Assembly: GCA_944358125.1 (NCBI GenBank)
Contig: CALVQM010000001.1
Location: 1 to 51,312 of the forward strand
From: an uncultured Bacilli bacterium
Lineage (GTDB): Bacteria; Bacillota_I; Bacilli_A; RF39; UBA660
Direction of reading: 5' to 3'
Length of the DNA: 51,312 nt
In this document: positions 42,913 through 43,911 of the stretch, piece after piece
How the letters are laid out: each line of letters begins with the position of its first letter
Position numbering within the stretch: the stretch's first letter is position 1
Notes under the pieces: generated by a model
What the model saw: the letters and a program-made list of their open reading frames with translations, nothing else
Databases searched by the model: none
Told to the model about the DNA's origin: nothing
Position numbers and translations under genes: made by a program

Positions 42913-43911
42913 TTGGTAATAATTGTGGAAGAAAAATTTAAAACGAAGAGTGAATATTTGGATTTTGTTGAACAAAAATTTAAAGATTGTTTTAGTAGTA
43001 AAGACTATATTGAAGAACAACCTGTAAATATAACATCTCAAGTTGATAAAACTGTTGATTTTATAGGCTCTAAAATTTCGCCATTAAAAAAATATGTTTT
43101 AACAGAAGATTTTGGTGAGAATGGAAGATTTTTGATTCAAAACAGTATGAAATTAAAATCATTACGGTATTTGAAAGAAACTACACCACAAAAATTTGGC
43201 TCTTATTATAAATGTATGGGAACACTTTCAAAGCCTGATTTGGAAAAAGTTGTATTTGATATGTTTGAATATTTAACTTATGAAAAATATTTAGGTATAG
43301 ATTTAGATGATATATGTATAAAGATTTGTTCCAAAGATGATGATTTAATGGGAGCTATAAGAAATGTTGATAGTAGAATAAATCGCGAAGTTGACAAAAC
43401 TAGTATTGAACATTATAGACATAAATATGGTATGTCTAAAGAAAATATAACGGGTAGAGATTTTAATATTGGAATTCGAAAAAAAGGTACTAATGATTAT
43501 TTTAGTTGTGGTACTTTTGTATTAATGGAATCTCCTGATAAAAAAATAGCAATAGATATGGGAATAGGTAATTGTTCTTTATCTATGTGCAAATTTGGTG
43601 TTGATTCAACTGTGCAAAGTTCACGAATGGCAGATTTAATTAATATAGATTCAATTGAAAAAGAAAAATTTGCTGATTCTTTAATTGCTGTCTCTACATT
43701 ATTAAAAGAGGATATAATAAATCATCCTTCTAAACATTTTAGAAAAAAATTTAGACTGTATTTTAATGCATTATCTTATTGGAGTGAAAAGTTAAATATT
43801 ACTGAAGAAGAAATATTAATTTATGCGTTGGACTATTTAAATTTAGAATATAAAGAAAATTTTTCATATACTGATGAAAGATTTGCTAAAATTTTAACAT
43901 TACATAAATAG
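42913..43911 (+). CDS. free-standing alanyl-tRNA-synthetase catalytic-core-like protein (divergent class II aaRS paralog)
   Basis: By-eye colinear match to the E. coli AlaRS N-terminal domain. VDFIGSKISPLKKYVL aligns with LLFTNAGMNQFKDVFL. YYKCMGTLS aligns with FFEMLGNFS. FEYLTYEKY aligns with WELLTSEKW. AIDMGIGNC aligns with VDTGMGLER. FADSLIAVSTLL aligns with [12 protein letters not shown]. No tRNA-binding or editing domains are present. The start codon is uncertain (TTG 42913 or GTG 42925). Confidence 0.55.
   Translation: MVIIVEEKFKTKSEYLDFVEQKFKDCFSSKDYIEEQPVNITSQVDKTVDFIGSKISPLKKYVLTEDFGENGRFLIQNSMKLKSLRYLKETTPQKFGSYYKCMGTLSKPDLEKVVFDMFEYLTYEKYLGIDLDDICIKICSKDDDLMGAIRNVDSRINREVDKTSIEHYRHKYGMSKENITGRDFNIGIRKKGTNDYFSCGTFVLMESPDKKIAIDMGIGNCSLSMCKFGVDSTVQSSRMADLINIDSIEKEKFADSLIAVSTLLKEDIINHPSKHFRKKFRLYFNALSYWSEKLNITEEEILIYALDYLNLEYKENFSYTDERFAKILTLHK

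Follow-up and report, generated by a model that had tools for sequence, protein, structure and literature searches.

A shortened, divergent relative of alanyl-tRNA synthetase heads a radical-SAM, phosphatase and serine hydrolase cassette in an uncultured Bacilli bacterium

The subject of this work is an open reading frame (ORF) in a stretch of DNA from an uncultured Bacilli bacterium (contig CALVQM010000001.1 of assembly GCA_944358125.1). The whole stretch that was analysed, 51,312 nucleotides with a G+C content of 27%, is called the window here. The ORF encodes a relative of the alanyl-tRNA synthetase (AlaRS) and is the first of three tightly packed genes. The second encodes a fusion of a radical S-adenosylmethionine (radical-SAM) enzyme with a histidine phosphatase, and the third a serine hydrolase of the peptidase family S51. 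The three genes look like one operon. The features of this cassette are the following.

42719..42747, + strand: promoter-like site, TTGACA-17-TAAATT with TG (predicted from a consensus scan only)
42913..43911, + strand: AlaRS-like paralogue, 332 aa counted from TTG 42913
42946..43650, + strand: class II (AlaRS-type) catalytic core, aa ~12-246 (model secondary structure and residue maps)
43555..43578, + strand: degenerate motif 3, DMGIGNCS, aa 215-222 (alignments and column counts)
43654..43902, + strand: C-terminal four-helix remnant, aa 248-330 (model helices and profile alignments)
43926..46061, + strand: 711-aa radical-SAM/histidine-phosphatase fusion (Pfam Fer4_12, Radical_SAM and His_Phos_1, E=1.7e-33)
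44058..44081, + strand: CxxxCxxC cluster motif of the fusion (C45 GVG C49 PF C52), invariant in 42 homologues
45498..46046, + strand: histidine phosphatase domain (branch 1), aa 525-707, with RHGE motif (Pfam PF00300)
46039..46785, + strand: peptidase S51 serine hydrolase (Pfam PF03575, E=5e-13)

The AlaRS-like reading frame opens at TTG 42913. Because the nearest homologue (P0001, 95% identical) begins with MEEKF, the true start is probably GTG 42925, which would give a protein of 328 aa.

Searches with single sequences reveal little of the relationship with AlaRS. A Pfam scan of the protein matched zero families at E<=1, phmmer gave zero matches in the PDB, and phmmer with the E. coli AlaRS as query misses all members of the family. 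The NCBIfam model of the short form of AlaRS, NF002436, is matched over residues 18-185 (E=1.8e-5), but with a score of 23.5 bits against a curated cut-off of 529, that is, below the threshold for a canonical AlaRS. The initial annotation, which had aligned the protein with AlaRS by eye, had warned that the resemblance could be fortuitous in an AT-rich, low-complexity proteome and that the protein might not have the fold of a class II aminoacyl-tRNA synthetase (aaRS) at all. Profile and structure comparisons refute this. The AlaRS of A. aeolicus (PDB 1riq) was matched by a profile of 38 close homologues with E=0.067 and by a profile of 78 diverse homologues with E=3e-19 (residues 6-318), and hhalign against residues 1-441 of the E. 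coli AlaRS gave a probability of 98% (E=2e-13, 277 columns). An AlphaFold2 (AF2) model built on the family alignment has a predicted local distance difference test score (pLDDT) of 93 and a predicted template modelling score (pTM) of 0.91. When this model was compared with the PDB using Foldseek, the best 19 matches were all AlaRS catalytic fragments (E 4.5e-16 to 1.6e-11, template modelling (TM) scores 0.66-0.75, best match 0.74), followed in the ranking by archaeal AlaRS and by GlyRS-alpha, which belongs to the sister subclass. Furthermore, several family members carry precomputed matches to PF01411. We therefore regard a chance resemblance as practically negligible. The protein has an AlaRS-type class II fold (subclass IId) with colinear sequence signatures, and we are very confident that it is a divergent AlaRS paralogue and not a tRNA synthetase.

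Five colinear blocks had been proposed to match the AlaRS aminoacylation domain, and in the profile alignments all of them pair with the expected AlaRS segments. Block 1, FIGSKISPLKKYVL, pairs with AlaRS FTNAGMNQFKDVFL; YYKCMGTLS (block 2) pairs with FFEMLGNFS; FEYLT...KICSKDDD (block 3) with AWELLT...TVYESDDE; AIDMGIGNC (block 4) with SVDTGMGLE; and block 5, FADSLIAVSTLLKEDIINHPSK, with a segment that lies inside the tRNA-recognition domain. Within the core, the motif-2 region is made up of IQNSMK(80) and YYKCMG(98-103), and it is followed by the family signature HYRHKYG...GRDFN (167-185) and by the strand GTFVLME (200-206). Compared with canonical AlaRS (E. coli 1-441, PDB 3hxu; A. aeolicus 1riq), the fold is the same, about 280 residues are colinear, and the signatures DPT..F, Q.C.R, F..MG, D.G.G and AD......L..(D/E)G..PS are present. 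On the other hand, AlaRS has about 875 aa against 332 aa here, and in the AlaRS-like protein W170 has become His, the motif-2 loop is shortened and lacks the HH pair, and the Arg of motif 3 is gone.

This last change, described in the initial annotation as GMGLER turned into GIGNCS, is correct. D215 corresponds to D235 of AlaRS and G217 to G237, and S222 stands at the position of E. coli R242. The Arg is not only missing from the window protein: in this column Arg is found in none of the 78 aligned family members (78/78 without it). In class II enzymes the motif-3 Arg serves ATP-dependent activation. Fold, profiles and column counts together support the description of the protein as a divergent paralogue of the AlaRS aminoacylation domain that stands alone and whose motif 3 is broken.

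The C-terminal end differs in one respect from what had been described. The protein was said to lack the tRNA-recognition, editing and C-Ala domains. The editing and C-Ala domains are indeed absent, as is most of the tRNA-recognition domain (E. coli ~327-441), but its first helices are kept. The model shows four helices after the core (248-265, 274-293, 298-313 and 322-330). The first part of this remnant (~248-296; KFADSLIAVSTLLKEDIINHPSKHFRKKFRLY), comprising two or three of the helices, is homologous to the beginning of the AlaRS tRNA-recognition domain, with which KFADSLIAVSTLLKEDIINHPSKHFRKKF aligns. The alignment extends to residue 318 of the A. aeolicus enzyme with hmmsearch and to about residue 326 of the E. 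coli enzyme with hhalign. About 50 residues of the tRNA-recognition domain can be aligned, including a region similar to ADHxR...DGxxPS...RGY, and the remnant carries the basic stretch PSKHFRKKFR.

We drew a residue map of the active site from the profile alignments to the E. coli and A. aeolicus AlaRS. The E. coli residues follow the numbering of the literature, which is the translated index minus 1, and family columns were counted over the 78 aligned diverse members, for which the mean column identity is about 28%.

E. coli R69: K80 in the AlaRS-like protein; family R in 63/78
E. coli F90: Y99; family mostly F
E. coli W170: H170; family H in 72/78
E. coli P180: R182; family R in 73/78
E. coli E183: N185; family mostly N
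E. coli E209: S198; family D in 55/78
E. coli N212: T201; family N in 58/78
E. coli V214: V203; family I or V
E. coli Q217: E206; family mostly E
E. coli D235: D215; family E in 65/78 and D in 13/78
E. coli G237: G217; family A in 40/78 and G in 32/78
E. coli G239: G219; family mostly G
E. coli R242 (motif 3): S222; family T, S, V, A, N or L, never R

The AlaRS pocket formed by R69, W170, N212, D235 and G237 is not retained as a set. Only D235 and G237 are kept in the window protein, with R69 conservatively replaced by K. The cradle that remains consists of the basic residue of motif 2, the aromatic residue at the F90 position (Y99 here), which we take to stack on adenine, and the Asp/Gly pair that helps to form the pocket for the amino acid. 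The hairpin that links the N212 and D235 strands falls 9-10 residues short of its AlaRS counterpart, and H86/H87 of AlaRS, presumably those that bind the triphosphate, are not retained in the family. At the same time, a whole series of polar pocket residues is (near-)invariant family-wide, namely D45, Q76, R/K80, Y168, H170, R182, N185, E206 and D/E215. Judged from the alignment, the pocket is conserved yet systematically altered and does not look decayed. Conservation of this strength suggests that the pocket works but that its reaction has changed. The subfamily to which the window protein belongs has a derived version of this pocket, with K, S, T, D and G where the family majority has R, D, N, E and A/G.

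How common are such proteins? A word-indexed search returned 104 full-length homologues with 44-95% identity. Where these have a name it is "hypothetical protein", and no Pfam domains were found among the 104. An exhaustive search of 1.84 billion representatives with a hidden Markov model (HMM) returned 530 clusters (50% identity) at E<=1e-3 and 390 clusters at E<=1e-10, with lengths mostly of 320-400 aa. The named sources include uncultured Bacilli, Erysipelotrichaceae, 'Tenericutes', 'Mycoplasma sp. CAG:611', 'Clostridium sp. CAG:417', Christensenellaceae, many Patescibacteria, Actinoallomurus and Streptomyces. Some of the distant members have a precomputed PF01411 match, and one bears the UniRef name 'tRNA synthetases class II (A)'. 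No relatives were found among the viral contigs of IMG/VR. In a library of viral structures we obtained only two matches, the AlaRS of the giant viruses Terrestrivirus and Yasminevirus (464 and 513 aa, E 6e-15 and 8e-13). These are naturally shortened AlaRS, as is the window protein, but their name in BFVD is alanine--tRNA ligase and their length leaves room for a whole tRNA-recognition domain, whereas the window protein is about 130-180 residues shorter and lacks the motif-3 Arg. Presumably they are of the published 'mini-AlaRS' type and are functional synthetases. A literature search found no description of the AlaRS-like family or of the cassette; the sole relevant item was a review of the enzyme AcmF (PMC12945691).

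We also looked for a genuine alaS. No canonical alaS was found within the window. However, in the assembly CATYVZ01, which contains two AlaRS-like copies, a fragment of a canonical AlaRS shares a contig with one of the copies (L022:3-293). The paralogue thus adds to AlaRS and replaces nothing, and it is not the housekeeping AlaRS.

The fusion gene begins 14 nt past the stop of the AlaRS-like gene and has a strong ribosome-binding site (AGGAGG). Its product consists of a radical-SAM part of about 515 aa, which belongs to an uncharacterised family and has a large helical section, and of the C-terminal branch-1 histidine phosphatase (AF2 model, pLDDT 92). The Foldseek matches listed for this model all fell to the phosphatase domain, which has a PhoE/CobC-type fold (target TM 0.78; E=5.5e-16 against PhoE, PDB 1h2e); for the radical-SAM part they were uninformative. 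The S51 gene likely starts at ATG 46045 and overlaps the stop of the fusion gene. Its membership in the family is clear, with 49.6 bits for PF03575 against a cut-off of 23.9 and a match to the PepE model NF003642 (E=2.8e-7), and the GxSAG nucleophile elbow (G145, S147, A148, G149) and the catalytic His, H186, are (near-)invariant in 14 copies of the cassette.

Upstream of the cassette, the promoter-like site lies 3' of a terminator-like hairpin (42517-42534) that closes the jag gene. Between this site and a weak terminator-like hairpin at 42877-42890, just upstream of the AlaRS-like gene, there is a hydrophobic ORF of 38 aa (MSVSFKGKYNIKSIMMITVFSFLMLFILNDVGARAIYR, 42776-42892, +) with the strong ribosome-binding site GAGGTG. 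Its product may be a small membrane peptide, or the ORF may serve as a leader. No counterpart was found in 31 related loci and the other cassettes lack a conserved small ORF, so we rejected a ribosomally synthesised and post-translationally modified peptide as the general explanation of the cassette, which this ORF and a YydG-like radical-SAM core might have suggested. Upstream of the AlaRS-like gene no riboswitch or T-box leader was found at gathering thresholds, and matches at E<=1 were noise only. Directly downstream of the cassette lies a gene for an N-acetylmuramoyl-L-alanine amidase (Amidase_3) with five C-terminal LysM repeats (46845-48203, +); this neighbour is not conserved at other cassette loci. 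The region at 38531-42518 is that of the replication origin, with dnaA at 38531-39916 (-) followed by rnpA, yidC and a jag/khpB-like gene (40545-42518, +). The GC skew flips its sign near 40 kb, which places the cassette about 3 kb from the origin and suggests that it is on the leading strand.

To see which genes accompany the AlaRS-like gene elsewhere, HMMs of the cassette proteins were searched over all fetched loci (denoted by L numbers). The close subfamily comprises 14 distinct loci. The S51 gene adjoins the AlaRS-like gene in every one of them for which there is sequence on that side, and the radical-SAM/His_Phos fusion is at most two genes away in 11 of the 14. In addition, a protein of 951 aa (P0276) contains Fer4_12, S51 and His_Phos_1 in a single chain, which suggests that the hydrolase is functionally linked to the radical-SAM/phosphatase enzyme. 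The cassette has several variants. L004 has an additional RlmN/Cfr-like radical-SAM enzyme (E=3.5e-50), while L022-L024 have an additional B12-dependent radical-SAM methyltransferase and a metallo-beta-lactamase. In L006 and L026 a viperin/MoaA-like radical-SAM enzyme and a protein of 407 aa replace the fusion, and S51 is found on both sides. We tried to identify the 407-aa protein as a HAD phosphatase and dropped this assignment: the Pfam match to HAD_2 is weak (E=0.005) and there was none in the PDB.

Two of these variants occur in one genome, CATYVZ01, which has two AlaRS-like paralogues in two types of cassette. In L022 the order is Rel, radical-SAM/His_Phos fusion, B12-dependent radical-SAM enzyme, AlaRS-like, S51 and metallo-beta-lactamase; in L026 it is the 407-aa gene, viperin/MoaA-like radical-SAM enzyme, S51, AlaRS-like and S51. 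A short Rel (HD, RelA_SpoT and TGS, 480-500 aa) also precedes the cassette of L001. A decaying cassette was seen in a metagenome-assembled genome (MAG) of an uncultured 'Tenericutes' (L021:9986-12027). Here, the AlaRS-like gene is split in two ORFs, S51 is intact, and of the fusion only a C-terminal phosphatase fragment of 96 aa is left, the radical-SAM part being deleted. This decay indicates that the cassette is accessory.

In Proteobacteria and Bacteroidetes the ~515-aa radical-SAM module occurs alone, and its neighbours there are enzymes of free nucleotides. For example, it stands beside a dTMP-kinase-like gene and an adenylate kinase (L013, L014), beside Ppx-GppA and an EEP phosphatase (L015), or, on a mobile element, beside a MoaA-like radical-SAM enzyme, NUDIX and HD (L016, L017). 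From the context of these stand-alone copies, the radical-SAM family appears to act on nucleotides. In an alphaproteobacterial MAG (L013:4103-9933, L014:3570-10336) the module is placed between a large NB-ARC/TPR protein of the STAND type and the kinase pair, a layout that resembles a nucleotide-based defence island. With its nucleoside monophosphate (NMP) kinases, NUDIX, HD and phosphatases as neighbours, the family resembles in its context nucleotide-modifying radical-SAM enzymes such as the prokaryotic viperins (pVip). It does not match viperin over its full length, however. The PADLOC pVip model matches only aa 37-126 of the 711-aa fusion, the cluster-binding region (E=1.2e-5), the NCBIfam viperin model gave no match to the fusion, and the radical-SAM part, with about 515 aa, is twice the size of viperin and has a large helical C-terminal part without known relatives. 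PADLOC found nothing for the other two proteins of the cassette, and a known defence system was rejected as an explanation.

The distant members of the family have other neighbours. In L029 the order is HD, methyltransferase, AlaRS-like, S66 (MccF/LdcA family) and an AsnA/AsnRS-like gene, and in L031 a tRNA-synt_2-like gene, AlaRS-like and S66. In L030, from Actinoallomurus, two dCTP-deaminase-like genes, the AlaRS-like gene, a sulfotransferase, a MatE exporter and an S9/S15 hydrolase sit within a cluster of nonribosomal peptide and polyketide synthases. L009 has HIT, AlaRS-like and SDR; HIT enzymes cleave aminoacyl-adenylates and related compounds. In L012 the AlaRS-like protein is fused to a methyltransferase and adjoins a kinase and an aminotransferase. 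Finally, in L032 (1737-4144) the stop of the AlaRS-like gene overlaps the start of a complete ProRS of the archaeal/eukaryote type (485 aa); this member is a close relative of the window protein with a Glu-type pocket (AVEMG). The recurring context is a nucleotide-processing enzyme and a serine hydrolase, often with an extra aaRS or aaRS-like gene. A biosynthetic or regulatory role had been suggested before from the sequence of the window protein, and the gene context of the AlaRS-like loci is biosynthetic in style.

Among characterised proteins, the closest analogue and precedent is AcmF, which acts in the ascamycin pathway of Streptomyces sp. 80H647 (Zheng et al., ACS Catal 2024, as reviewed in PMC12945691). 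This truncated, AlaRS-like protein has lost the residues for activation of ATP and Ala; it moves alanine from Ala-tRNA(Ala) onto the nucleoside sulfamate dealanylascamycin, which is bound, as modelled, at the adenylate site (PMC12945691). The hydrolase AcmE cleaves its product, and the substrate comes from an additional AlaRS, AcmD, which also confers resistance (PMC12945691). We compared AcmF with the family through the published description of its residues and architecture. Both proteins are truncated and lack the editing and C-Ala domains, the window protein being even shorter, and both lack canonical residues for ATP/Ala activation, in patterns that are alike but not identical. The nucleoside at the adenylate site, modelled for AcmF, is what we propose for the AlaRS-like protein, and the reversing hydrolase AcmE has its counterpart in the partner S51 here and in S66 or S9 in distant members. 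The equivalents of E209 and D235 are only 16 residues apart in AcmF and 17 in the window protein, compared with 26 in the E. coli AlaRS, and the exchange of D235 for E is common to AcmF and 65/78 family members. There are also clear differences. AcmF has a whole tRNA-recognition domain (E374 lies inside it), whereas the window protein has only the first helices. In the pocket, AcmF has E216/Q219/E232 where the family has D/N/E and the window protein S198/T201/D215. AcmF is paired with the AlaRS copy AcmD, while the window cassette has no aaRS gene, and the partners here, the radical-SAM/His-phosphatase fusion and S51, are unrelated to the acm genes. Among the matches of an actinobacteria-biased profile none was named AcmF and none had the AcmF residue pattern. 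By analogy with AcmD, the ProRS of L032 may be a supplier or resistance aaRS.

Based on gene context and on this precedent, the reading that we favour, tentatively and at somewhat less than even odds, is that the AlaRS-like protein would transfer or ligate an aminoacyl group to a nucleoside-type acceptor, forming a bond that S51 would reverse or process. In this scheme the radical-SAM enzyme would modify a nucleotide and the fused phosphatase would remove phosphate from the product, leaving a nucleoside or a lower phosphate. The AlaRS-like protein would then hold the nucleoside in the former adenylate pocket and add an aminoacyl group, which the S51 hydrolase might strip again for self-protection, activation or recycling. 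The last step would parallel AcmE in ascamycin and MccF in microcin C. MccF-type S66 enzymes cleave aminoacyl-nucleotide antibiotics, and both S51 and S66 use a Ser-His-Glu catalytic triad; S51 enzymes are not known to cleave aminoacyl-nucleotides. The likeness to the microcin C system is that S66 stands directly beside distant AlaRS-like members (L029, L031) and S51 beside the window subfamily, but the cassette has neither an adenylating enzyme of the MccB type nor a precursor peptide. An aminoacyl-tRNA could serve as the donor, as it does for AcmF; alternatively, the altered site could use ATP to activate an amino acid. We slightly favour the aminoacyl-tRNA, given that the protein has no motif-3 Arg and still has acceptor-binding helices. 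The product would be a metabolite of the aminoacyl-nucleoside type, potentially an antimetabolite, an inhibitor of an aaRS or a signal. The initial annotation had offered two options, an activating enzyme working on a non-tRNA acceptor or a scaffold. This list was incomplete, since a transfer from Ala-tRNA as in AcmF is a third option, and the polar pocket residues conserved in the family argue against a pure scaffold.

Several points weigh against this scheme. Its functional steps are all drawn from context and analogy. In length the protein falls short of AcmF, and with most of the tRNA-recognition domain gone its binding of tRNA is uncertain. The family-specific R182 lies near the old ATP site and might take over from the motif-3 Arg, so that an ATP-dependent activation is possible. 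The pocket of the window subfamily (K80, S198, T201, D215, G217) differs from that of distant members, and the chemistry may therefore differ as well. The S51 and S66 families also include ordinary (di)peptidases and enzymes that recycle peptidoglycan. By sequence, the closest solved radical-SAM core is that of YydG, a peptide epimerase (E=4.7e-9), and from this similarity a peptide substrate fits as well as a nucleotide. Finally, the hosts of the cassette are lineages with reduced genomes (uncultured gut Bacilli, Patescibacteria), in which secondary metabolism is no more plausible than a role in housekeeping or salvage.

These points lead to other explanations, each of which we consider less probable. 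The enzyme could be directed at RNA, i.e. it could bind a tRNA acceptor or another RNA 3' end and, together with the radical-SAM/phosphatase protein, modify, repair or aminoacylate RNA. The retained beginning of the tRNA-recognition domain with its basic stretch would fit, RlmN/Cfr-like enzymes such as the one in the L004 cassette belong to the family of RNA adenine C-methylases, and phosphorylated ends are possible targets of a histidine phosphatase. However, the equivalent of E. coli ~327-441 is missing together with the editing and C-Ala domains, we found no tRNA or structured RNA in or beside the cassette, and the partners of the stand-alone radical-SAM module are enzymes of free nucleotides (NMP kinases, NUDIX, HD, Ppx-GppA). 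A serine hydrolase of the PepE type also has no obvious role in RNA metabolism, and an action on RNA seems unlikely to us.

Rather improbable, in our view, is a tRNA-independent ligase that would join an amino acid to another amino acid, a peptide or UDP-MurNAc-peptide, with S51 or S66 as the matching peptidase. The absence of the motif-3 Arg family-wide counts against it, and it leaves the phosphatase fusion and the nucleotide-enzyme contexts unexplained. It is true that S51 and S66 are both peptide hydrolases: the S51 family takes in the dipeptidase PepE and cyanophycinase, PepE models match the S51 protein, and S66 is an LD-carboxypeptidase by its Pfam name. The similarity of the radical-SAM core to the peptide epimerase YydG and the LysM amidase that follows the cassette in the window would also fit, but this amidase is not a conserved neighbour and there is no conserved precursor peptide, the 38-aa ORF being confined to the window among the related loci. 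A pseudo-synthetase, that is, a dead, HisZ-like regulatory or substrate-presenting subunit with an amino acid or a nucleotide as its ligand and the radical-SAM enzyme under its control, would account for the loss of the motif-3 Arg and of H86/H87 and for a small protein that regularly accompanies the same partners. On the other hand, so many (near-)invariant polar pocket residues at a mean column identity this low are typical of catalysis, family members have quite different partners and are thus not a dedicated subunit of one enzyme, and the characterised analogue AcmF is catalytic. We hold a dead subunit to be quite improbable.

If the aminoacyl-nucleoside scheme is extended to the whole family, it leads to a broader proposal, which is possible but on balance doubtful. 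The three-gene cassette would be an undescribed pathway, widespread among uncultured gut Bacilli and Patescibacteria, whose product is a nucleoside that the radical-SAM enzyme has modified and that has been aminoacylated. This product would mimic an aminoacyl-adenylate or the 3' end of an aminoacyl-tRNA and serve as an antimetabolite or in chemical defence. On this view, the family, with its 530 or more clusters, would represent a general and so far unrecognised class of aminoacyl-nucleoside synthases derived from AlaRS, with pocket positions 198, 201, 215 and 217 setting the specificity and S51, S66 or S9 hydrolases for immunity.

The window contains some further features. A T-box leader at 17004-17191 (-), whose score of 111 bits exceeds the Rfam threshold, precedes a gene for a methionyl-tRNA synthetase of 507 aa (15443-16966, -), which we annotate as a T-box-regulated metS. 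This locus is adjoined by a gene for a C-5 cytosine DNA methyltransferase (17495-18637, +). A gene for a small bacterial signal recognition particle RNA is found at 30483-30580 (-, 62.9 bits). Towards the end of the window, two neighbouring genes (48655-49131, - and 49236-49694, -) each encode a product with two helix-turn-helix domains of the Xre type (HTH_3/HTH_19), and they are followed at 50196-51184 by two ORFs that match no Pfam family.

Several aaRS have catalytic-domain paralogues that took on new jobs, for example AsnA, HisZ, EpmA or the SerRS-like amino acid:carrier-protein ligases. For AlaRS, the only characterised paralogue of this kind that we know of is AcmF (2024), from one Streptomyces cluster. 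The AlaRS-like proteins described here would belong among the aaRS catalytic-domain paralogues that are reused in small-molecule chemistry. What is new is a large, almost wholly unannotated family of shortened AlaRS derivatives, with an active site that is rewired family-wide and a recurring partnership with nucleotide-processing enzymes and serine hydrolases. Neither the AlaRS-like enzyme nor its radical-SAM partner has a characterised close relative, and the ~515-aa radical-SAM family, none of whose members is characterised, deserves study for itself. If the proposed function is true, the family would provide a handle for genome mining for aminoacyl-nucleoside antibiotics or aaRS inhibitors and would be a second, independent case of a synthetase scaffold turned into a transferase. 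It would also explain what a conserved cassette does in gut Bacilli with reduced genomes and in bacteria of the candidate phyla radiation, in which very little specialised metabolism is known.

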